Assembly (NCBI GenBank): GCA_010015585.1
Contig: ML975153.1
Strand: one strand, 5' to 3'
Length of the DNA stretch: 64,000 nt
From: Eremomyces bilateralis CBS 781.70
Lineage: Eukaryota
This document shows, piece after piece, positions 1 to 38,206 of the stretch. Under the pieces are notes generated by a model. The model had not been told where the DNA came from. It saw nothing but the letters and a program-made list of their open reading frames with translations, and searched no databases. Made by a program: the position numbers and the translations under genes. Each line of letters begins with the position of its first letter. Within the stretch, counting starts at the first letter, position 1.

Positions 1-400
1 GAGCCAGGTTAGTATCTTTATCATATGTCGTTCCCTTGATCTTGCTCAGTGCGATCAGAATGCCACCCTGGCTACTGGCATGTCCAGGATTGGGGTCGTG
101 TCCACCACTCTTGACACTAAAGTTCACATCCGTATATTCACCGAGAACCTGGAAAGCTTTACCAACTTCTTGGGAAGTGGTCGGCTTCAGGATACAGGCC
201 GGCTTCAGGTCTGAAAGACCGACGTTCCAGTAATCATCGTTCTCCTCCTTATATCCTGATGACCGGGGATTGAAGAGCTTCCCTGGGATAGCTTGGGTGA
301 GAGCATCGCATGCGTTCACTGTTGACTGTGTCGGAGCTTGCAAAGAGCTGGCCGAAAACAAAGACAGGATGAGCGCCAGAGAGACCTTGGAAAGAGCCAT
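1..400 (-). CDS. Secreted FAD-binding (PCMH/FAD_binding_4, BBE-like) oxidoreductase, 5' part; runs off the window start
   Basis: Absent from the ORF track. Manual translation from ATG at 400: MALSKVSLALILSLFSASSLQAPTQSTVNAC...YWNVGLSDLKPACILKPTTSQEV...NFSVKSGGHDPNPGHASSQGGILIALSKI. It shows a signal peptide plus the P.C...P....V and (K/R)SGGH flavinylation motifs. Confidence 0.85.
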   Translation of the reverse strand, partial: MALSKVSLALILSLFSASSLQAPTQSTVNACDALTQAIPGKLFNPRSSGYKEENDDYWNVGLSDLKPACILKPTTSQEVGKAFQVLGEYTDVNFSVKSGGHDPNPGHASSQGGILIALSKIKGTTYDKDTNLA

Positions 401-1039
401 TGCTAACGAAAGTCAAGATAGCCAGCAGTGGAACTGGATAACTTCAACCGAACAGTGAAGCGGACAGGCATTGCGACAGACTTATATGGAGGCAAAATCG
501 AGTTATTGCACCCGGACTTACTCCTGACACTGCAGCAGTAGCGCAATTTCACATGAATGAACCCCCACAAAATGAAGCTCTGTGATATACACCAAATATG
601 GAGTAATGCTGGAGGGCGACCTTTAGTTACCGGGGGATTGTTTGTAGAAATAATACCATATCTGAGTATTTTGATTCGGCAGTTTCGTCGGATGTAATTT
701 TAACCTCACTTAGTGCGACCTCATCGAGCATTTTCTATTCTTTCATGATTCCCCATGGAGTTGTACACGAGGTGCTGCCGTTCAGCGTTGGATGAAGTCT
801 GGGGAGTGTGGGTCGTTGGATGCTTGTATTCGGAATCTGGTGTTGAAGCGTCCAGCCGTCTCGATTTCTCAACGCTCGACCGTCGCGCATCTTGGATACG
901 GTGGGGCTCGAATAAATAAATTTGGAAAGGGAGACTGTCGTCCTTCACTTGTCCATTGCAATTGCTATCGAGTTGCACAAAACGACTCCAATTCTTGTCC
1001 TTGAATGGCGGTATTTTTTATCACCTGAAGAGTCGAGAT

Positions 1040-1820
1040 CAGGGAAGTTTGACAGGTGATAGCTCGAGAGATACCCCGGAAATCTACTACTTACATCACC
1101 GGCCTGTCAAAGACGGAGAAAGGGAGCACTGAGCTTTTGATTATCGTAGACCGGTTAAACAAAGGAGCAGTGTTCGCGGCCTGACCTAACGAGCGAAACG
1201 TCAGTCGAGACGTTCATCGAGCATTACCTAGCGCACTGCGCCTTACCAAGAGTAATCACATCCGACAGACGAGACAAGTTCGTCAAAGGAGTCAGATCGC
1301 AGATCTGCAAGCTAGTGAAGGTAAAGCAGAGGCTGTCAACCGCCTATCATCCAGAAATAGGTGGATCTACCGAAAGAATGAATTAGAATGTCGAAGACTT
1401 CGTACGGCATTTTAGTACATATAGGCAAGACGATTGGACACATTGTTACCCTTCGCCCAAGTCGCGATTCTCGGAAGAACGACAGTGGCAACCGGCATGA
1501 GTCCCTTCTTCATTACGCACGGCTACCATCCGTATTTGGGAGATTCAACCGGTTTCACAAGGGCTACAGACAACAAGAGTCCACCTAAGAGTCCGGCAGC
1601 AGCAGCGGAGATGAAGATGAAGAAGTTCCACGAATGCGTTGAATTCGCGCAAGCCGCTATGGCTACGTCCCAGCAGAGATAACAAGACGTGACCAACAAA
1701 CGACGCGACCCAGCACCAGCATATCAGACGGGGGACAAGGTGTGGCTCGACGTGCGGAACATCAAGTTGCCAGACAATTGGAGGAAAAAGCTAGCGAGAC
1801 TGCATGAGCAGTTAGAGCAA
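1040..1820 (+). mobile_element. Degenerate Ty3/gypsy integrase relic
   Basis: Broken frames give LLIIVDRLNK, LPRVITSDR, QRLSTAYHPEIGGSTERMN, TGMSPFFITHGYHP and RRDPAPAYQTGDKVWLDVRNI, which are typical gypsy integrase core and C-terminal motifs. Stops and frameshifts are present. Confidence 0.85.
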
Positions 1821-2601
1821 CTGAAATCATTGGGATTAGCGCATGCCGCCTGAATGTGTGTGAGAGAGAGAGAAAGAAAAGGGAGGAGACTATTCCGCAT
1901 CACGATCCTTGGATTCCCAGAAGGCGGTGCGCTCATTCATGCGAACGGATGAGGCAGCGCAAGGAGTAAGAGGTGTCGATGGAAATGATGGTTGACGCTA
2001 GGTGCGAGGGATTTGGGGAAGAGAATCATTCAGTGGATGATAGCTGTCGACTTTCGAGTAGGTCTTAGCGCTTGCTCTTATAACGGATCCAGAAGTCGCG
2101 TGTTCGTTCATGCGGTGGATCTGCTAGGCCGCATATTCATACGAAAGGAGGGAAGAGGCTCGCCCGCTACTTCGGCTGCCGGTTCCATCCCTAACCGCGT
2201 CCACGCCACAGCCCCTGGGCAGCGTGGATAGGTAGTTCTGGGCTGTTCTGGATGGCGAGCAGCGCACCGGAGGCAGGTCAAGGAATAAGCGAGGCCAGGG
2301 AGGGAAAAGAGAAAGCGCAATGAAAGCAAATCGATTGATCCGGATACTGGGACTCTGTGATTGTCTATTTCCCTTAGGTTGGAGATTGGCGTACATAGGG
2401 TGTTTCCCTTCCATCATTTCGTCGTATCAGAACATCTTTCATGTAAAGAAATCAGCAAATTGAATTTCAGATCTACTCCCAATGTCGTTTAAAAAGCGTG
2501 AAAGATCAACTGAGATTGAGCACCGTAGATCAGAGGCTGCTACGGCCCGCCCCCCAGAGCTTGCTTCGCTTCACCGGATGCCAGTAGTCGGAAGCGATTC
2601 A

Positions 2602-3560
2602 TCAACGTGACGGGGGCGCGAGATTTACCGGCTCTTGGATCTGGAATTCTTTAGTGACCTTAACCCACTCCTCGCCATACTCCTTTACGAGACGCAGCAG
2701 TAGGGAATCTTCCGCAGAAGTGAGGGCTACACGAAGGTTCCTCCGTTTTTGCTCTAGCTCTGGTATGAAATTCAAATCGAAGTCGTCGTCGCTAATGTCC
2801 TCTAGTGTGGAGAACTGACGTTCCCTCGCCACCGGTGAAGCGGCCGATACCGTAGCCAACGCTTCCACGCGGTCAAAGATATCCCGAACCATATCCATGA
2901 GGGCCTCCTGGTTCCCCGATATCTCGGACTGCGTCTGAGCGTTGCTGCGGATCGCTTCCAGCAGCTCCGGTAGGCTCTGAACCAGGGTTTGGTCTTGCGA
3001 AGCATGTGCATGGAGACTGTGGCCGTCCTTCAGTGGGGAATCCGGTGGGGCAGTGATCCTAGGTTCTAGCTCCAGCGAGGGCGAAGCGGGTAGCGAAGGT
3101 GACGGAAGACGGTCGACCAAAGTCAAGGGAGGCGGCGTAGCTTTCTGTTCGACGTATCCGGTTAGCTGAATAGAAAAAAAATGGCGACTCTATCCCCTTA
3201 CCCAGGTGATCAGGGGAGACGCCGGCGTTGGCGACTGCGCCGGAAGACGCCTATGGAAAGACATCTCCAGGCCAGAATACTGTACGACGATATGGTCTCT
3301 AGGTGCGAGGCGGAGTTCCTTGCGAATAAATTCCTCGACTCCGTGCGGATCTGGACAGTAGATGCGGAGGATGTTGCGCCATCGTCTAGCTCTGACACGT
3401 AGACCGTCACATCCTCTTCCTTGTTTGGAAAGCGAGTATTGAGAAGGTCCTGGACCTGTTGCGTGAAAGCTACTTTGACCCTTATACCCGCTTTGCCGGT
3501 CTCTTGACAGATGGATGTGTGACTCGGCGCCAGCCCCTACGTCCTCGCCCCTTCGTCGGC
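2602..3560 (-). pseudogene. Degenerate gene: unknown conserved domain, then an intron, then a Pro-rich linker and a Myb/SANT-like C-terminal motif
   Basis: The exon at ~3200-3500 (TRFPNKEEDV.../ILRIYCPDPHGVEEFIRKELRLAPRDHIVVQYSGLEMSF) ends at GTAAGG. The intron has GCTAAC...CAG. It joins ORF 2602..3126, which ends in LTSAEDSLLLRLVKEYGEEWVKVTKEF (Myb-like helices). A frameshift and a stop lie upstream. Confidence 0.55.
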
Positions 3561-4101
3561 GGGTTATGGTTGATCAGAGGGAATCGAGTGGCCGCCGTTT
3601 CCCCTAAGTGACGACCGCTTCTCAATGGATTCACCGATACGAAAGAGTACCTTGTATCCTGCGTTCATGCGTTCATGGAAGAAGCTCCACCGTCGGTCGA
3701 TGTCCCCTGTGATTGTGGATAGCCAGTCGGCGGGCCACGGCTGTTTAAGTAGAGAGAGAAACGAGTGGCCGTCGGTCCTCGATCGGCGATAGCATGAATG
3801 ACTGACATATTGAGGGAGCCGGAAGCCGTATCTCGGTTCATGCGTTCATGCAGGGTGGAGCGAAACCTGTTTGGGTTTTTGTTGGGACGAGGGGAGATTG
3901 GAAGGATCCGAATTCATGGTGTGGTAGTCGGTGGACGGGCGGGAGGTTTCGATGGATGATGGTTATCGTGAAAGATTTCGGGGATGGATGGGTTACGAAC
4001 AGACGGCGCTATACCTGGTCGGGCGGCGCTAAACTCAAGGAGGGAATTAACCAAAACTTCACGTACAAAGTTAAATATTTACAATAAGCTAGGACAGGTA
4101 T

Positions 4102-4327
4102 TGTCGCACGTGATGTGCTAAAATGGTTGGGAGTGAGGTGCTGTTGTTCCAGCAGCGAAGTTGTTGTATTGTGTGTTGTGTGTAAGTTGTGTGTAAGTTG
4201 TGTGTAAGTTGTGTGTTCTAGCTGAATGCCTGGTTCCCCGGCCCTACAGATATACGAGAGTCACGGCAAGATTATTAATGCAGTTTGTAGCCTTGGACTC
4301 CTAGAGCTCATGCCTTGGCCTGCGACA
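4102..4327. mobile_element. Solo LTR (226 bp)
   Basis: TGTCGCA...TGCGACA inverted termini with a perfect 5-bp TSD GGTAT (4097-4101, 4328-4332). It contains an internal (TTGTGTGTAAG)x3 tandem repeat. Confidence 0.85.
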
Positions 4328-4346
4328 GGTATTCCCCGGATTTCAC

Positions 4347-4797
4347 GTTTACTATGGTTACAGGCAAAAGTATTGTTAGCGCGGCGCTAATTAGGGGTCT
4401 AGCCTAAACCGTTTTGTTCATTCTTCCATTACTAATTAGATATAGATTTCACCATCTATTAGCCTGCTCATTCTCCGGACCCCAATCCTATTGAGACAGT
4501 ATGGAATTGGATGAAGGGCTGGATCCAGGACCACTATGGGGATGCCTGATTATATTATGACCAGCTTCAGGAGGGAATTAACGATGCTTGGGAGGCTATC
4601 AGAGGAATTCGTGTAAGAGTTGTCGAGTTGATGGGCCAGAGATGCCAGGATGTGATAGGCGCAAATGGAGGCTATACACGATAATGAAATCTATATCCAA
4701 TTAGTAATGGAAAAAAGAACAAAAACGGTTTAGGTTGGAAACTCCTGCTTAGCGCCGCGCTAACAATACTTTTGCCTATACAGTAACCATAGTAAAC
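4347..4797 (+). mobile_element. Internally deleted, non-autonomous Tc1/mariner element
   Basis: About 105-bp imperfect TIRs (GTTTACTATGGTTAC...GATATAGATTTCA and its reverse complement). The interior encodes the transposase C-terminus PAHSPDPNPIETVWNWMK...RCQDVIGANGGYTR with an internal stop. Confidence 0.88.
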
Positions 4798-5194
4798 ATC
4801 CAAGCCTCGGCCTGTATGTGGGGCATCCGGGTGCAAGGGCGGGAATAAACTCTACCTCGAACTCGGAGTCGGTCCCTAGCAACTTGTACGTACCAACAAG
4901 CGATGCTAGCTTATGATCTTCATTCGGGTGAAAGACGACTCCGAAAGATGTTTTCGGCTCGGATCTGAGGCGCTGGGTCATGCGTAGCACGAAGCAACAT
5001 AAAGAACGGAGTCACATTTGGCACGTTCTTCCAATTCCTTGATTTAGTGTATAGATCGACAGCACTCATTTCTTTCCCCGCGAAACCTGATTGATACCTC
5101 TCCAAGATAGCTACCATCGAAGTTCGGAAGTAGTCTTCCAACCCCCCAAGAGCCAATTGACCTGCTGCCGTGTCCTGCAAGACATATAACAATC

Positions 5195-7869
5195 ATGGGC
5201 GACGATTCCGATCCTCCCTCGTCATCTCATCCTACTCCACCAGACGTTGACCTGCTCCGCAACAATGCCACCCTCCACCCCTCCGGCTACGAAGAGGTCC
5301 CGTCCAAAGCATCCATCCTGCCGCCCGAATCGCCGTCCGATGTCTCCGTTATCGACATGCCCGATCCACCTGAGGCCGATGCGCCGGATCGGAACCTCAT
5401 CGAGCGAATGGCGCGTTTCCGTTCGACGCCCCTCTCCTTCCTCCGGGAAGTCAGCCTCCACGTTTCTGGTACCGGGTGGCGGAGCTATGACAATATCGTG
5501 GGGCAGCCGGTGTTCTATCCCGGGTTCAGCGAGAAGATGAAGCAGAGCGTATTGTCGAGCCCGATGTTACAGGCGAAGGTGGAGGAGTTGGCGGAGAAGA
5601 GGGTGAGGGTTGAGGAGGGGGAAGGGCGGTGGGGACTCGCTGTAGACGAGGGTCAGAAAAACTATACGGGTAGCACGAAGAGGGATAGGAGAGAAAAGAG
5701 GAAGAAAGACGTTCAGCAGAGTCTGGAGCAGGTGCTCGAGAAGATGACTGAGGACATGATTGCCAAGATGGAGGGCAAGCGGTTCATACGTGGAGCATAC
5801 TACATGGTCACACAGTTGTTGACGCGAGCATATCACCAAGGTAAGCTTTTTCCAATGTGCATGCTCTCTCTAGCTGACATCCAACCCGCGAAGGCATCCA
5901 CGTCTCCTCCGAAGAAATCGTCCGCCTCCGTAAAGTCGCAATCGAAGCTCAGAAAAAGAAACAGTCCATCATCTTCCTCCCCTGCCATCGTTCTCATGTC
6001 GACTACGTCTCATTGGCAATCATCTGCTACCGTCTCGGCCTTACTCTACCCGTGGTCGTGGCGGGCGACAACCTCAATTTCCCTCTCGTCGGTCCGTTCC
6101 TGCAAAGTGCTGCAGCGATGTGGATCCGACGGTCGTTTGGGGACGACCAGCTCTACACGACGCTCGTGCAGGCATACATGGACACTCTGCTTCAGCAAGG
6201 ATTCAACTTCGAGTGCTTCGTCGAAGGCACGCGATCGCGAACCGGAAAACTGCTCCAGCCCAAGTTCGGGATCTTGGGCTTCCTTCTCGACTCCGTACTT
6301 TCGGGCCGGGTTAAAGATGCCATCATCTGCCCCGTCAGCACACAGTATGACAAGGTCATCGAAGTAAACAGCTATGTCTCCGAGCTGCTGGGGCAGCCGA
6401 AGCAAAAAGAGAACCTGATGGACTTCCTCTCCGCGTCATCCATTCTGAGCCTCAGACTGGGGCGCGTCGACGTCCGTTTCCACGAGCCCTGGAGCCTTCG
6501 ATCCTTCATCGACGACCAGATGGCGAGTTATACCAAGATGCCGCCGCAAATGCCCACTGAGCCGAATGGGAAGGACACGACCCGGCTCCGGTTGCTTCGC
6601 ACGCTCGGTTTTAAGGTCCTAGCGGAAATCAACGAAGTGTCGGTCGTCATGCCGACTGCATTGATCGGCACCATTCTCCTGACATTACGGGGACGCGGCG
6701 TTGGAAAGAGCGAGCTAGTCAGGAGGGTGGATTGGCTGTGCGCACGCGTCAAGTCCCGAGGTGGGAGAGTTGCGCATTTTGCTGGACTCCCAACGGAGAC
6801 GGTCGTCGAGCGCGGGCTGGAAGTTCTGGGACCGGAGTTGGTCGGGGTCGTCTATGGCCTTGTGGAGCCGACGTTCTATGCGGTGGATCGGTTCCAGCTT
6901 TCATTCTATCGTAACATGACCATCCATCTGTTCGTCTCGGAGGCCATCGTGTCGGCTAGTCTATATGGCCGAGTAAAACTCGGCGGTGGTCTCGAGCACC
7001 AGCGCATGCCGTTTGAGGAGCTTCGTGATCAAGTTCTGTTCCTCTCGCAGCTCTTCCGCGGGGAGTTCATCTTCCCGACCGACGGCCTTGAAGCGAACCT
7101 ATCCAAAACGCTCCAAGGGCTCGAGCAGGATAAGGTCATCCACATCGTCAGGAACCAGCAAGATCCGTCGCAGATTGAGTTCGTGGAACTGAGCGAAGAA
7201 GAGCGGGACCAGGGACGCGAGAACTACGACTTCTACTGCTTCATGATTTGGCCATTTATCGAAGCCAGCTGGCTCGGTGCGGTATCTCTCATGGCGCTGA
7301 CGCCTCCATCAGGGCAAGGCGAGGATATGTGGCTGGACATGAAGAAGGTGCAGGATATGGCTCAACTGGTAAGTGAATATTGAAAAACTCCCTCAGCTCT
7401 TCGGCCGATAGCTAACGCGGGCACCCAGCTCGGTAAAACCCTCTACCATCAAGGCGACCTCTCCTACTTCGAAGCCGTCAACAAAGAAACCCTCAAAAAC
7501 GCCTACCAGCGCTTCGAAGAAGAAGGCATCCTCCTCGTCGCCAAATCCAAAGACGCCCGCATCCCCACCACCGTCCGCCTTGCCCCTGACTGGGTCCCGC
7601 CACGCGCCCCCTCCAGCAACCACCTCCTCCCCTCCGGCCGCCTCTGGGCGTTTGCCGAGCACATTAGCCATAGCCGACGTGAAGGGAAGAATCGGCGGGA
7701 CGGGAACACGGTGCGAACGCGGGTGCTGGGGCTGGTGGAGCTGGTGGCGGAGAGCTTGTGGGAGCATGCGCGGCCGGCGGCGAGTCCGGAGAGTAAGCCC
7801 GGGGCGTATGAGAAGGTGAAGCAGCGGCGGCCGAGAAGGGCGATTGGGGAGGGGAAGGCGAGGTTGTAG
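5195..7869 (+). CDS. Glycerol-3-phosphate/dihydroxyacetone-phosphate acyltransferase (PlsB/GNPAT-like), probably peroxisomal
   Basis: join(5195..5840,5894..7368,7429..7869). HRSHVD (HX4D), AMWIRR and FVEGTRSRTGK acyltransferase motifs. Ends in GKARL* (PTS1). Confidence 0.9.
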
Positions 7870-7986
7870 GATGGGCGGCGGCTGGGGCGGGTTGTTCGGG
7901 TAGATACATTTAGATGATATCCCTGGATGAGCGTTCGGGCATGGGCATTGATATAATGGAGTCCGCAATGAATATATTCAGGCTAC

Positions 7987-8264
7987 TGTTATGGTCCCGG
8001 GCCCGTGGCCTGGGCCCTTGAGTATGGCTGACGCCACAGGGATGTGGCTAGTGGATGGCATGGAGGATTATCAAGGATATAGTCATATGGGAGCTATGTG
8101 TTAGGACGGAGCTGTGTTAAGGAGCTGTGTTGAACTGTGTTAGTATAGTAGAGAGAAGAGTTTATATCTCGCACACAGGCGCTGGGAGATTTCTTCCTTC
8201 TCTCTCTTCTGTTTAGATTAATGGAACTTGGTAATCGCAGATCTTGCGCATCCAGACCGTGTCA
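7987..8264 (+). mobile_element. Solo LTR, family shared with 13325-13585
   Basis: TGTTATGG...CCGTGTCA termini. Flanks GCTAC/GTTAC are a TSD with one mismatch. It matches the reverse complement of 13325-13585 along its length. Confidence 0.85.
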
Positions 8265-33424: not shown

Positions 33425-34002
33425 CGTGCTAGAGGCATTCGGATGCGAGGATATGGTTGAGATTTTGTAGTAAAGGTGAACGCAGGACGAAAGTTTAGAA
33501 ACAAAGGACAATGGTGTAGTTACGGGATAGAGAAGTACTGGGGCAGCTTTAATCTCGAAGTGTGATATCACCAAGATCATGACCCCACCATCCCGAAATC
33601 GTGGGGGAGTCGGGGTAATCCCTGTGAGTTAGTTGACAGGTGGTGACGGATATGTAACCAGTTATCAAGGGTCAGCGCCACGGGTTATGGCGCGCCAAGG
33701 CCGCCTGATAACCCAGCCTCTCGCGCCAGCGACCGCAGCGCTGCCCCCTTGATATACCACTTATCTGAAGGCCTTCGCGGTGGCTGGGTTATTGGCGAAG
33801 ACATGGCGCAGCGTTAAGCCCTTTGCAGTAAAGCGTCGGTGGAAACGATCGCTATATACGGTATAGCTGTGACTTGGTGGCGCTTAGCTCAGGCATTTCT
33901 TCCCCCTCCCCTCCTTTCGCGATAGAACGAGCCATTCGCGATCATACAGATGAATAGTTTACTCGAATTATCCCCTACCTACCGCCATTAGACCGTGAAG
34001 AA

Positions 34003-36334
34003 ATGCCTCCTAGCTCGCAGCTCTCTATAGAGCATGCGATCGAGCTGAACAGCCGTTTAAATGCCGCGACACAACGAGCCCTTGCAACGCCAGATGGCAG
34101 AGTAACGAGTACGAGGAGAATATATGAGCCACGACAGCAAGAGTTTATTGTGAGAAGCGCTTTCGTACGGGAAATCCAACGAAGGAGGAGGCTAATTCGG
34201 TTAGGCGTGGTGCCAGAAGAACCAGTGCAGCGACGGTATACTCGTTACCAGTGCCAAGATTACCCTCTTTCTAGAAGAAGAGGTTATCGGTCGCATCGCA
34301 AAGCCGACCCGGCCAGGCCGGAGGCTGAAGCAGCCTTGTACGGACACGGATGGCAATCCGATCGTGCAAACGCTCGGAGCTCGATCGATTGAAACGTACG
34401 TTTCTGCGATTATGGAGCTGTGGAAAGTGCAGCACAGCCTTGCTCAGAACCAAAATGTCCCCGTCCGGTCGTACGCGTTGAAGCAGCTGCTGCAAAAGCG
34501 TAAGATGGCCGAGGCGGCCCGCAAGCGAGAAGAGTACGTTGATCGCGGTGCTGGCACACTGCTCGACGGCTATTCGGAAGAAGAGTTCGTACGATGTATA
34601 CGAGGCTGCTGGCAGCCCGAGGCGTCTGAAACGTCCGTCCTGGCAGGCCAGAAAAGAAAGCGAGAGAGACCGACATCGCAGGCCTACAGCGGATGGCTTC
34701 GTACGGCAGTCGATCTCCTCTTCTCGCATAACATGTTTCTGCGTGGGGAGACTGTACGAAACGGAGAACTGCCTGATCTCTTCGCCGTCCCGCTGCAGAA
34801 TGAAGGAGCAACAGATTGCCGTGTTCTCTGTATGATTGTAGACAACGGGAAGACAAACGCCTTTGGAAAGCTAGAGTACGGTGTTACCGTACGACACAAG
34901 GAGCATTGGAAATGTCTAGTCTCTCAGTTGGCGTTCTACCTCTTCTTCCGCTGGGACCTTGAGAGAGAACCGCCGCCGACCTTCAAGCAGCGCTCGGATT
35001 GGTATCGTACGAAGATTTTGAAAGGTGGCCAGAATACCCATCCTCTCTCGTACGCTACTCAGCTGCAGTGGGTCAATGGGATCTTTGACCGCTGTGAGGT
35101 CTCGTCATACAAGAAGACGCATGCCGGACGAAAGCAAGGTGCTCAGCATGCGGAGATGCTTGGTGTCAGCGAATCTCAGATTCAGAGAGCGGGACGATGG
35201 AATTCGGATTCCATGTCGAATGCATACCTCAGCCATATTCCCCGAAAGTTCGTACGAGCAGCCGCTGGCTTCCCTCCCAGCGGCCGAGGAGACTACTTCA
35301 TTCCGCGAGCACAGATCCTGCCTCCTGAGACGCTCGTACGGAAGATCTGGCCATGGGTGGACGAGTGGATCGAACGGTTCCAACAGAATGAGAACACGGT
35401 GCGTGATGATCACCAGTTAGACGAACAGGATGAGGGAGATCGGAATGACCTTGCTGGAAAGGCCTTCCTCCGGCTACTTGATTATCTTCGTACGGTGCTT
35501 CTTCAGGACTCCGTCCTAATCCGCGATGAGTTTCCACGCCACCCTCTCTTCCAGCATCCGATCTTCTCTGATCCGGAGTACCTTGACTTTATGCGGAGGA
35601 TGAGGCAAACTCTTGCTGCTGAAGTGGTTCCACCGCAAGATGTACTCGTACGACAAGCTGTTCCGATAATTGCAGATCGATTGAGTGTGATGGAGACCAA
35701 TCTTGGACAGAGATTACAAGAGATGTTCGACTCTCTTCGTACGGAGCAAGGCCGTCAGCGTACGGTTCTAGATGGTGTATTCAGTGGCAGAACACCTATT
35801 TACCTTAATGTGGGACACTCATCCTTACTCCAGGATCCATTTCCAGCGGTTCGGACGGCCGCTCCCGGCACGAGAATACCTTCAACGCCGGTAATAGAAA
35901 CTCCGGTTTCTATCGCACGCTCCACTCCGACTACCTCTTCGGCTCCGCCGCTATTGGCTATTAGCCCTTCTACCGTACGACCGCTACCTGATCGACCGAT
36001 AAAAGAGAATGGAGAGCCAATCTATACTATGTCTCGTACGGTAGAAACTGTTGGTCAACTCTGGCGAGAGTGGTTTGAAGGATTTGCACCTAATCCTTCC
36101 GTACAAGCGTTAGAGTTAAGGTATGGCGCCTTATGGCGACAGAAAGATTCAGAGAAGACGTGGTATAGTCGTAGAAAAGCTATTATTGATTATATCCGTG
36201 TAGTATCTGAGGCGAAGAGAATACCAGCTCTGCTTGCGGTAACACGGTTGGAAGAGGTACGTACGAGATCAAAGTGGAGTCTACATCATCTCTACAAGGA
36301 GATTGCTCAAAAAAAGAGTAATCTACTTGGATAA
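34003..36334 (+). CDS. Crypton tyrosine recombinase (Ndc10 domain-2-like YR plus C-terminal GCR1_C DNA-binding domain), 758 aa
   Basis: join(34003..34149,34205..36334); the intron GTGAGA...GCTAAT...TAG joins the frames. Catalytic set R (LRGE), K (GKTN), HxxR (THAGRK), W (GRW) and Y (NAYL) is intact. GCR1_C signature MSRTVETVGQLWREWFEG...PSVQALELRYGALWR...YSRRKAII. Confidence 0.9.
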
Positions 36335-36403
36335 GCTCTAAGATTGATAGAGGAGGTGCTTGTACGATAATAAATTAATTTGGAATCAAGCAGGAGGAAG
36401 TAA

Positions 36404-36597
36404 AATGAGGAGGATCAAGAGGATCAAGAAGAGAAGGAAGGGGAGGAGGAGGAGGAAGAGGAGGAGGAGAAGGAAGAGGAGAAGGAGAAGGAAGAGGAGA
36501 AGGAGAAGGAAGAGGAGAAGGAGAAGAAGGAGGAGGAGGAGGAGGAGGAGGAGGAGAAGGAGGAGGAGAAGAAGAAGAAGAAGAAGGAGAAAGACGA
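36404..36597 (+). repeat. Polypurine (GAG/GAA/AAG)n tract between the two convergent element genes
   Basis: About 190 bp almost entirely A/G, with 15-bp AGGAAGAGGAGAAGG-type periodicity. Confidence 0.9.
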
Positions 36598-36905
36598 GAA
36601 GCCTCGTACGAAGCGCAAAGTTAGAAAGATTCAACTTTCAGGCCCTGTAGAGCGAGCGAAAAGGCGTCGGAATTAAACAAAGGAGTTTTTAGACGTATCA
36701 TTATATTCCAATTATAGCGGATATCGTACGAAACTTTCATTAATTAGCATATACCTATAAAAGATCTGTTTAGTTTCACCGTACGGTTACTTGTCTTGAA
36801 CTCCACGTAGAGGAACAGATTCTGTCTAAGTACTATCAACAGCCCTGATAGCTAGGATGCTGCCAGTGCTAACATAGAAAGAGACCTTACGAAATTGAAC
36901 TTACA

Positions 36906-36947
36906 TTAATCACCTAGAAGGGTTTCACTTGAATCCGACCGTACGGA

Positions 36948-36978
<31 letters not shown>

Positions 36979-37463
36979 GCATCCTCGTCGTTATTCTCCT
37001 CTTCAGACGATTCTTCGTCCGAAGAATTATCCCAAGAGCAGCGCGTACCGTGGTCACGCCACTTACAATTACCGCAGCAATCACTAAAGTGAGCGATCGC
37101 ACGGCGGCACTCGGGGAAGGGCGTCAGGCCGCGTCGTACGCATTCAGTGCAAGCTGTCGGCGCCGCTGTCCCCCGGGATTGGATAAGGATGGCGTTGATG
37201 TATGACGGGCGGTGGCTTAAGATCTGCCCAGCCGATATCCGGTTGCGTACGAACCGGACGTGGACGCCGGGACCGGTAGCAAGAAGCTCCCGAGGCTAGG
37301 GGGAGTGGCAGAGAGCTACAAAGATGGGGTTACCCCTAACCTGCAGCGTACCAATTCCCGGAGTAGGAGGACCTACCGCCGCACCGTAGGTACTATTAAA
37401 CAAAACAAGAGCCCTAGGAAGATTAATACCCGTACGGAGTGGAAATAGATCAAATGCTTACAT
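36906..37463 (-). CDS. DUF3716-like Cys-rich protein with an acidic tail (169 codons, one in-frame TAG)
   Basis: The ATG is split by a 48-nt intron (AT|GTAAGC...TAG|G, 37414-37461). Translation: MALVLFNSTYG...CHSP*PRELL...RPSYINAILIQSRGTAAPTACTECVRRGLTPFPECRRAIAHFSDCCGNCKWRDHGTRCSWD, then poly-Asp/Glu. The TAG is at 37296-37298. Not in the ORF track. Confidence 0.75.
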
Positions 37464-38206
37464 CTTCGAACGTTGGAGAGCACTGAAGGAAGAAAGAGAG
37501 AGAGAAAGAAAGGAGGAATCGAGTAGGATAGAAGCATAGACTTATAACGACACCTTCCTTAGTCAAATGAATCACTCCTTCCTTACGAATTCCTATTTTA
37601 GAAAGGGAAATTTCCACCTACGTACGAATTTCTATCTCAGAAGGCCCATCCTATTGTACTGTACCTTGGGTAGTCGGGATTTCAATATGACAAGGTTGAC
37701 TTTAGTTACTTGATACTTATAAGTCGATATGACTAACAGCTTACCGTACCTACTGTTGTTGTTATTGCTGTTGTTGTTGGTTAGTATAGGCAATGAGAGT
37801 ACCATTTCCGCGATGGTTGTTATGTGTGAAGAACTAGGGTCTTGGCATTTTTGCCTAATAACCCAGGCCATGACGCGCCAAAATTCCCCTTATGATATGT
37901 CCCAGTTAATGGATGCACACGCTCTGTGATACTTCGCATTGCGTTGTAATTCGGTTTTATTATCGTACGGTAAGCACCAGACTTTGTCTCAAATAGATCG
38001 AGGTAGAAGATGTGGCTAAACGGTGTGTATGAGGGAGCAATTATTATATCAGATGGCTAAATCAGCTACCACGAACAATGGAGGTCAAGCAACGCAAACA
38101 TAAACGCCACATCGCTTGACATGGAACCTGTCTCAACGAGCCCCATTCCAACCCAATTCAAACATCCACCGGGTATAATCATAATCAGTTATGTCTAAAA
38201 CGGGTA

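Follow-up and report, generated by a model that had tools for sequence, protein, structure and literature searches.

This report concerns a 64-kb stretch of DNA (64,000 nucleotides, hereafter the window) from contig ML975153.1 of the fungus Eremomyces bilateralis CBS 781.70 (assembly GCA_010015585.1) and a CryptonF-type transposon which occupies positions 33658..37908 on its plus strand. The element is filled with one palindromic hexamer, CGTACG, repeated through the coding sequence, intron and spacers alike. The array is real, strong and apparently undescribed, and it is very likely a selected cis-acting signal. What the signal serves for can be proposed more tentatively: the words would be putative binding sites read by DUF3716, the product of a second gene of the element, and would act along the whole element, a reading to which somewhat less than an even chance is given. 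The broader interpretation of the array as self-marking binding sites is plausible.

CGTACG in the window and the expectation by chance

Exact CGTACG occurs 34 times in the window, with 26 copies in 34164-37969 and 8 in the other ~60 kb. The original prediction, made from the sequence alone, had listed the same 26 positions, all of which were confirmed, and had estimated by eye about 7 copies elsewhere, close to the 8 counted. It had assigned all 26 to a Crypton; this stands for 25 of them, and the last one, at 37964, is located 56 bp beyond the right end of the element in a single-copy flank. One hundred dinucleotide-preserving shuffles of the whole window gave 9.0 +/- 2.8 copies, the largest value being 17, and the 8-9 copies found outside the element in ~60 kb match what the shuffles predict. 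Within 33600-38200, CGTACG is the most over-represented hexamer (26 versus 0.66 expected) and TCGTACG the most over-represented heptamer (16 versus 0.35), both judged by how often words occur in the remainder of the window. A similar density in unrelated regions, which would have spoken against the prediction, was not seen in the window, where every other stretch of 4248 bp contains at most 2 copies.

As predicted, sixteen of the words lie in the coding exon of the recombinase and are distributed over all three reading frames, where they spell Arg-Thr (7), x-Tyr-x (3) and x-Val-Arg (6). Synonymous shuffling of this coding sequence, in which protein and codon usage are kept and synonymous codons are permuted, yielded 2.26 +/- 1.37 words with a maximum of 8 in 5000 shuffles, versus the 16 observed; the enrichment therefore persisted under a codon-preserving shuffle, a check set beforehand. 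The word is spelled in 16 of the 23 amino-acid contexts able to carry it (7 of 9 Arg-Thr, 3 of 3 x-Tyr-x and 6 of 11 x-Val-Arg). The remaining 1971 nt of the element contain 9 words versus 0.35 +/- 0.58 (maximum 3 in 2000 dinucleotide shuffles), so the excess amounts to 7-fold over synonymous shuffles in the coding part and 25-fold in the non-coding parts. It can be said that codon usage, composition and protein sequence do not account for the number of words, and the claim of an element-wide array unexplained by protein sequence holds.

The signal resides in the exact word. Exact CGTACG is about 28-fold enriched in the element (25 versus 0.9), and the many one-mismatch variants noticed earlier turned out to be a mild rise (26 versus ~16 expected), the best of them being CGTACA/TGTACG, the products of CpG transition, with 4-7 copies versus ~1. 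The word is preceded by T in 16 of 26 cases and by C in 5, and followed by A or G in 22 and by T in 1; the wider word in the window reads YCGTACGR and is symmetric like the palindromic core. No CGTACG is present in the first 503 bp or the last 287 bp of the element.

Relatives carrying the same word

The comparison set comprised 52 homologous database proteins and 80 metagenome loci encoding relatives, and a locus was regarded as word-rich when its count exceeded the first-order Markov expectation with a Poisson p<1e-5. Seven of the 80 loci, all from soil metagenomes, are word-rich, and the suggestion that homologous Cryptons share the hexamer was borne out within one clade. The counts are 48 versus 1.2 expected in L050 (two adjacent elements), 27 versus 0.9 in L016, 21 versus 0.2 in L004, 15 versus 1.0 in each of L043 and L045, 14 versus 1.8 in L014 and 12 versus 0.8 in L025, at least 5 of the last being a CGTA microsatellite. 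Where long contigs provide flanks, these contain 0 copies in L016, L043/L045 and L050 and 2 in L014; the word is confined to the elements and the flanks are at background. Over the aligned part, protein identity between the rich elements and the window element is 38-44%. In a CryptonF tree of 64 rows, all six rich rows are placed in one clade of 19 rows (support of 97 in the Shimodaira-Hasegawa-like approximate likelihood-ratio test), among 13 poor rows, so that word-rich elements form one clade of the family.

L050 deserves separate description. Positions 1-8103 hold two different Cryptons head to tail, L050a extending to ~3100-3400 and L050b starting from ~3400. L050a belongs to the family of L016, L043 and L045, L050b is distinct, and both are saturated with CGTACG, L050b having 25 sites. 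In the L016 family almost all sites are the full octamer TCGTACGA, and the pooled consensus of the relatives extends to CTTCGTACGAAG with flanks CTT..AAG. Several word-poor rows keep relics of the word: L001, which is nearest to the window element among the relatives found, covers 13 of its word positions and has a one-mismatch version at 6 of them, and L005 and L007 contain mildly more words than synonymous shuffling gives.

Signs of selection on the word

Each rich element has 16-17 sites per recombinase gene, L014 having 9, and 8 of the 16 coding sites of the window occupy positions unused by the other families, the rest being common to others. In the alignment, site positions change from lineage to lineage at a steady density. 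Numbered in order along the window, the sites met in this lineage alone are site 3 (34470..34475, S-Y-A), site 4 (34588..34593, F-V-R), site 7 (35006..35011, R-T; one other genomic copy has G at 35008), site 12 (35647..35652, L-V-R), sites 13 (35738..35743) and 14 (35759..35764), both R-T, site 15 (35974..35979, T-V-R) and site 17 (36260..36265, R-T). Site 2 (34395..34400, T-Y-V) is common to L050b only, sites 6 (34888..34893, T-V-R) and 10 (35335..35340, L-V-R) to the L016 family, and site 16 (36035..36040, R-T in the GCR1_C domain) to L004 and L050b. Widely common positions include R166-T167 (site 5, 34700..34705), S-Y-A at 282 (site 8, 35049..35054) and F-V-R at 349 (site 9, 35251..35256).

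The word has been written at the expense of the protein. At residues 349-351 the rich elements have F-V-R (TTC GTA CGN) versus F-M-R in 56 word-poor relatives, and at 429-430 (site 11, 35489..35494) three rich families have R-T versus mostly R-E, R-V or R-I in the poor ones. At least 7 of the 16 residues which discriminate rich from poor elements are spelled by the word (V253, R254, E284, V350, R379, R456 and V685), and word sites map onto aligned residues without indels. Conserved residues were replaced so as to spell the word, as in the change of Met to Val at FVR. The 52 database homologues contain the dipeptide RT 313 times versus TR 85 times, and VR 293 times versus RV 99 times.

Spacing of the sites is more even than random, the coefficient of variation of the gaps being 0.43-0.62 versus ~0.94 under the null. 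The P value for even spacing is <=0.0002 in the window, L004, L016 and L050a, 0.008 in L050b and 0.03-0.06 in the two elements with the fewest sites. After pooling, 86 of 105 gaps measure between 60 and 240 bp, and there is no single period. An exact and even word maintained through coding sequence at ~40% protein identity, with conserved residues altered, is strong evidence, of an unusual kind, for selection acting on the DNA.

Outside the coding exon, site 1 (34164..34169) is located in the recombinase intron, and sites 18 (36605..36610), 19 (36725..36730) and 20 (36780..36785) in the spacer between the recombinase and DUF3716 genes. Site 21 (36940..36945) falls in the acidic tail of the DUF3716 frame, sites 22 (37135..37140) and 23 (37246..37251) spell C-V-R and F-V-R in the same frame on the minus strand, FVR being conserved in the family, site 24 (37431..37436) lies in a possible, modelled intron of the DUF3716 gene and site 25 (37621..37626) between that gene and the right end. 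The original prediction had put sites into both introns; for the recombinase intron this is proven by spliced RNA, and the second-gene intron exists as a model only, in a gene with an in-frame stop. Site 26 (37964..37969), the one outside the element, may be due to chance or may hint at target choice near such words.

A separate observation concerns R166-T167. In word-poor relatives this pair is encoded by CGT ACG in 11 of 49 cases versus ~5% expected from codon usage, and the site at 34700 may be older than the array.

DUF3716 as the putative reader

In the window, the DUF3716 open frame occupies 36906..37295 on the minus strand (129 codons, with six conserved cysteines and sites 21-23) and matches Pfam PF12511 with an E-value of 2.7e-15 and 56.5 bits versus a cut-off of 22; all 42 aligned relatives match as well. 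A profile search identified the gene in 4 of 81 sources (the window, L050a, L016 and L014), all of them word-rich, and in all four it lies downstream of the recombinase, in reverse orientation. In L050a its frame is intact and has 207 codons. None of the 13 word-poor loci which have the recombinase end and at least 1.5 kb downstream contains it. The conserved cysteines C49, C52, C63, C74, C77 and C86 form the pattern C-x2-C-x10-C-x10-C-x2-C-x8-C in the family alignment; their order is the one found in classic Zn2Cys6 domains, whose loops are ~6 residues long versus 10 here. When a model of the cysteine-rich half (predicted local distance difference test, pLDDT, 78) was compared by Foldseek, the 11 listed rows (12 matches) were all Zn2Cys6 domains, with E-values of 1.2-4.8 and template modelling scores up to 0.65. 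By VIA, all 7 chains reaching Z>=2 among 48,161 aligned were Zn2Cys6 domains too (Z 2.2-3.7), of HAP1, GAL4, LAC9, Leu3, Pho7 and AlcR, and the model of the whole protein (pLDDT 81) gave the same families more weakly. A PDB sequence search with DUF3716 gave nothing meaningful, the Protein Atlas no match above 0.82, and none of 16 longer DUF3716 proteins was fused to another Pfam domain; a homodimer prediction scored 0.00, which is no verdict and no evidence either way.

The following mechanism can be proposed. The word would be a short palindromic protein-binding site with the core CGTACG, the wider form YCGTACGR and an extension up to CTTCGTACGAAG in relatives, and the array would be laid roughly every 60-230 bp over the coding sequence, intron, spacers and second gene, sparing the ends. 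Its reader would be a two-fold symmetric DNA-binding protein, most likely the DUF3716 of the element itself, whose six-cysteine half may fold like a fungal Zn2Cys6 cluster and sit as a dimer on a CG-containing palindrome. Fungal Zn2Cys6 clusters typically read CG-containing palindromes in this dimeric form. The bound protein would act locally on the chromatin of the element, which would be kept open or unsilenced by analogy with the VANC proteins of plants; less likely, it would coat or tether the excised circle. A local effect is probable because the sites cover the whole body of the element rather than cluster. It should be stressed that we infer the binding of a protein, its identity with DUF3716 and the effect of binding alike.

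Several points weigh against DUF3716 as the reader. The co-variation of word and gene, suggested earlier, holds for the 4 of 4 DUF3716 sources which are rich and for the 0 of 13 poor loci, but not for L050b, which is rich yet lacks its own DUF3716 gene, although it adjoins L050a, which has one; the contig of L004 is too short to judge. Counted by independent lineages, the link stands on two or three (the window; the clade of L014 with L016/L050a), and because of this number the co-occurrence is suggestive only. By its scores (E>=1.2, Z<=3.7) the likeness to Zn2Cys6 is weak, and Pfam Zn_clus (PF00172) is matched by 1 of 42 DUF3716 members, with an E-value of 4.9. In the window copy, an in-frame TAG (37296..37298, minus strand) stands where the family consensus has Gln (..HSPQGRAVL..), and the gene is probably broken. 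Upstream of the stop, in the part of the gene at 37299..37463 on the minus strand, the only plausible start ATG would be split by a 48-nt intron (37461-37414), a feature of the model whose splicing was not seen in the RNA contig covering 36601-37749. The DUF3716 region is at single-copy depth and the recombinase part is multi-copy. Given the stop and the single-copy depth, a working DUF3716 reader may be missing here, yet the sites are intact.

Further points of this kind come from outside the clade and from the copies within it. A second CryptonF clade with no accessory gene has a weaker excess of GCCGGC/CGGCCG, ~2-fold over synonymous shuffles, which, if real, speaks for reading by the recombinase or by a host factor. 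GCCGGC lies inside the element in 22 of 23 cases in L047 (3500-6420) and 17 of 20 in L060 (3500-6100), with a ~2-fold excess in 6 loci of one clade (L064, L036, L025, L026 and L020 were also taken into account); the excess is absorbed by an order-3 Markov model of the element's own tetramers. That different Crypton clades may use different words is therefore a lead and not a finding. Finally, columns of the word are nearly invariant among copies of one family (differences at 0/138, 1/96 and 0/90 versus 4.6-7.2% elsewhere), and purifying selection deduced from this was set aside as confounded, because the copies change almost only at CpC, which the word lacks.

These changes are of interest in themselves. 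A comparison of L050a with L016 gives C-to-T (G-to-A) changes at 117 of 293 CpC sites, and one of L050a with L043 at 83 of 172, versus 0-3% at CpA, CpG and CpT (regions compared: L016:3600-7282, L050:1-3405 and L043:3600-5800), and the recombinase of L016 has 9 stop codons. By sequence, the changes in the family look like repeat-induced hypermutation with a preference for CpC. The classic preference of repeat-induced hypermutation is CpA or CpG, and a CpC-preferring form is not known to have been described.

DUF3716 genes also occur as accessory genes of the unrelated Zymoseptoria transposon REP9, according to PMC8232023. The present finding suggests a function for this widespread fungal domain, which is carried by at least two unrelated transposon types. 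As a side observation, 92 DUF3716 homologues (P0054-P0145) contain RT 70 times versus TR 30 times, and VR 98 times (conserved FVR excluded) versus RV 72 times; therefore many such genes may sit in CGTACG-rich DNA.

Other possible readers and explanations

A host protein, a transcription or chromatin factor, might read the word instead, the element having gathered host sites to stay expressed or open. This is rather unlikely, though it is the strongest of the alternatives. In Pseudocercospora fijiensis the cyp51 promoter contains a 19-bp repeat, TAAATCTCGTACGATAGCA, whose core is identical to the octamer TCGTACGA, and more copies of the repeat go with reduced fungicide sensitivity (PMC6637983). 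Since copy number is tied to sensitivity, the octamer may serve a host factor of another ascomycete as a cis-regulatory site. The likeness extends to the octamer and to the importance of copy number; the difference is that it is a tandem repeat in the promoter of a host gene, in another fungal class. A host reader would also suit the window copy, which retains all its sites despite an apparently broken DUF3716 gene, and the word-rich L050b. However, enhancer sites usually cluster upstream, and here the first 503 bp, which include the promoter region, are empty and the coding sequence is evenly filled. Moreover, there is no excess of CGTACG in the rest of the window, related Cryptons without DUF3716, among them some from the same metagenome sample series, are word-poor, and a literature search for a fungal factor with a CGTACG motif yielded nothing usable.

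Less probable still is that the recombinase reads the word through GCR1_C or its N-terminal part, with the array condensing or synapsing the element or tethering the excised circle. The protein is present in every element, L050b being rich without DUF3716, and the second clade, which has no accessory gene, has a weaker palindrome excess of its own; GCR1_C is a known DNA-binding domain (PMC3212892). Nevertheless, only 4 of ~100 GCR1_C positions discriminate rich from poor elements, and one of these is spelled by the word itself; a clade-specific word without a clade-specific GCR1_C argues against the recombinase as the reader. The terminal repeats (CCAGTTA here, ATAACT/TAACTA types in PMC3212892) are unlike the word as well. 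The related idea that CGTACG is itself a recombination site or terminal repeat was rejected, the ends being CCAGTTA and the published CryptonF repeats ATAACT-like.

A signal at the RNA level is very improbable. It would consist of UCGUACGA palindromes serving the pairing, processing or protection of transcripts, or of GTACG resembling a 5' splice site. The element is transcribed, and T after the word is rare (1/26), as if GTACGT, a common fungal splice donor, were avoided. The sites, however, persist through the spacer and the convergent second gene up to 37621, and their symmetric flanks (Y before and R after, CTT..AAG in relatives) fit a two-fold symmetric DNA binder. Mimicry of splice donors was rejected: RNA contigs are colinear over 34205-34837 and 34929-36428, and therefore no site there serves for splicing in the main form of the transcript.

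Equally small is the chance that the array has no function and arose as a side effect of biased mutation or repair, or of an inherited codon or peptide bias. Protein constraint could account for some of the positional conservation, since certain sites coincide with conserved residues (R166-T167, Y283, R351), and the word, offering no CpC target, survives hypermutation passively in one family; against this stand the 7-fold coding and 25-fold non-coding excess, the amino-acid replacements which create the word at otherwise conserved positions, and lineage-specific positions evenly spaced at constant density. The footprint of an element-specific mutational process, which the original prediction had kept as its second option, is not supported, given the lack of indels, the replaced conserved residues and the even spacing. 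Repeat-induced point mutation in particular leaves no such footprint here, the element (GC content 0.46-0.54) being neither AT-rich nor TpA-enriched as that process would make it, and the word being exact, evenly placed and accompanied by amino-acid replacements.

Relation to known systems

CryptonF DNA transposons were reportedly described by Goodwin et al. in 2003. To our knowledge, nothing has been learned about the recognition, regulation or protection of Cryptons, which are among the least understood eukaryotic transposons. The element described here agrees with CryptonF in having a single recombinase + GCR1_C protein, a size of ~4.2 kb, short terminal direct repeats, no inverted or long repeats and multiple copies; it differs in that the part of Kojima & Jurka 2011 (PMC3212892) consulted mentions neither an internal iterated palindrome nor a DUF3716 gene. 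In the literature searched, no published description of a CGTACG array in Cryptons was found, as the original prediction had supposed, Goodwin et al. 2003 lying outside the search and a mention there or in preprint supplements being possible. A search for CGTACG together with fungal transposable elements gave nothing relevant (one item was a BsiWI optical map), and occurrences of TCGTACGA in the literature were mostly primers, the P. fijiensis promoter apart.

The closest functional parallel is that of the VANC anti-silencing proteins, which are said to recognise motifs in VANDAL21, an Arabidopsis element of the plant Mutator type, mostly as non-coding tandem repeats, a local effect having been proposed. 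Both systems combine a short element-specific word spread over a transposon with an accessory protein encoded by the element. In contrast to VANC motifs, the present word is an exact palindrome, evenly spaced, and occupies coding sequence, where it has entailed amino-acid changes; the parallel is based on the co-occurrence of word and DUF3716 and on a DNA-binding-like fold. If the reader is encoded by the element, the VANC-type self-marking of plants would here have its first parallel in a fungus; we know of no earlier one, no search dedicated to it having been made.

HIP1, the highly iterated palindrome GCGATCGC of cyanobacteria, is likewise an exact short palindrome which occupies all reading frames and shapes the choice of codons and amino acids. 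It is distributed genome-wide in a prokaryote, whereas CGTACG is restricted to a 4-kb mobile element with flanks at background. Subterminal transposase-binding repeats of transposons differ in being located at the ends only, the CGTACG array spanning the body of the element. Zn2Cys6 factors act on CG-containing palindromes, for example Pdr1/Pdr3 on TCCGCGGA. DUF3716 may share their six-cysteine cluster fold (by weak model scores), and the word, too, is an 8-bp palindrome with two CG steps and a possible dimer site; DUF3716, in contrast, has longer loops between its cysteines and no significant Zn_clus match, and its putative sites are not in promoters.

At the point centromeres of budding yeast, CBF3 brings together Ndc10 and the Zn2Cys6 protein Cep3 on CDEIII. 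In both cases a Crypton-type recombinase fold is found beside a zinc-cluster protein reading, here putatively, a short CG-containing and partly palindromic word. CBF3 differs in having one site per chromosome and in consisting of catalytically dead proteins encoded by host genes. Ndc10 is Crypton-derived according to PMC3212892. As Ndc10 and Gcr1 descend from the Crypton family, the finding may bear on how host DNA-binding systems arose. By analogy, and as a far-fetched possibility at present, the clade could possess a two-protein recognition system in which the Ndc10-like recombinase and the Zn2Cys6-like DUF3716 provide a distributed 'holding' of the element or circle, which would be bound, open and inherited. 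Were this true, the 'holding' system would be the free-living transposon counterpart of the logic of yeast CBF3, and an origin of point centromeres from the DNA-marking system of a mobile element would become testable.

The CryptonF element: coding capacity, ends, copies and transcription

The carrier of the array is a Crypton, as had been claimed, with Pfam NDC10_II and GCR1_C in the recombinase and DUF3716 in the second gene. It is an ordinary CryptonF by all four defining features examined, namely a catalytic recombinase, GCR1_C, short terminal direct repeats, and repeated copies with variable presence. The frame at 34205-36334 matches NDC10_II with an E-value of 7.3e-70 and GCR1_C (PF12550) with 2.6e-22 at residues 607-686 of exon 2. 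R180, K216, R309, W332 and Y341 do not vary in an alignment of 35 sequences, H306 hardly does, and the window protein has all six; together they form R..K..HxxR..W..Y, the catalytic set of tyrosine recombinases.

The element measures ~4244 bp plus one terminal repeat (4.24 kb). The direct repeat CCAGTTA terminates it on the left (33658..33664, plus strand) and on the right (37902..37908, plus strand), and occurs on that strand only 3 times within the whole window. Similarity to other genomic copies, seen as contig breaks and loose ends in public runs, ends at 33661 and 37908, which coincides with the two repeats. A repeat search of the region found no long terminal repeats in the element. In PMC3212892 (Additional file 1), CryptonF elements from related fungi are given terminal repeats of the ATAACT/TAACTA type, which the reverse complement of CCAGTTA resembles; one of these elements, CryptonF-2_ACap, measures 4251 bp.

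Coverage in DNA runs X1 and X3 reaches 2-5x that of the flanks over parts of the element, and in a related species 33413 is joined to 38322 with only 831 nt between them versus 4908 here. The element is multi-copy, variable in presence and absent from the related species. DNA depth peaks in the end regions 33802-34018 and 37708-37924, at ~5x and ~3x that of the flanks and above that of the recombinase body, and therefore the genome may hold end-only or deleted derivatives.

Run X2 is RNA, as shown by canonical spliced joints in a neighbouring gene and by the joint 34149>34205 (GT..AG). This joint proves the 55-nt intron and the transcription and splicing of the recombinase gene; depths of RNA contigs were left out of any expression ranking. 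Exon 1 (34003..34149, plus strand, 49 codons) has no CGTACG and is covered by an RNA contig, 34006-34149, joined to 34205. The intron (34150..34204, plus strand) contains the site at 34164. Exon 2 (34205..36334, plus strand), supported by Pfam, the open reading frame and RNA, encodes the tyrosine-recombinase/NDC10_II part and GCR1_C. Directly after the recombinase stop there is a purine-rich (GAG/GAA)n microsatellite (36379..36618, plus strand), at which read assemblies break.

Near the ends, the subterminal repeat GCCTGATAACCCAG at 33703..33716 (plus strand) contains the core ATAACCCAG, with an inverted core copy at 33784-33792, and the repeat GCCTAATAACCCAG at 37853..37866 (plus strand) coincides with contig breaks at 37847-37867. 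The core is thus met thrice near the element ends, at 33708 (+), 33784 (inverted) and 37858 (+). GC-rich arms beside the cores, TTATGGCGCGCCAAGGCC at 33685 and GGCCATGACGCGCCAAAA at 37867, are mutually inverted. Judged by sequence, the subterminal cores and the GC-rich arms are possible candidates for recombinase binding sites.

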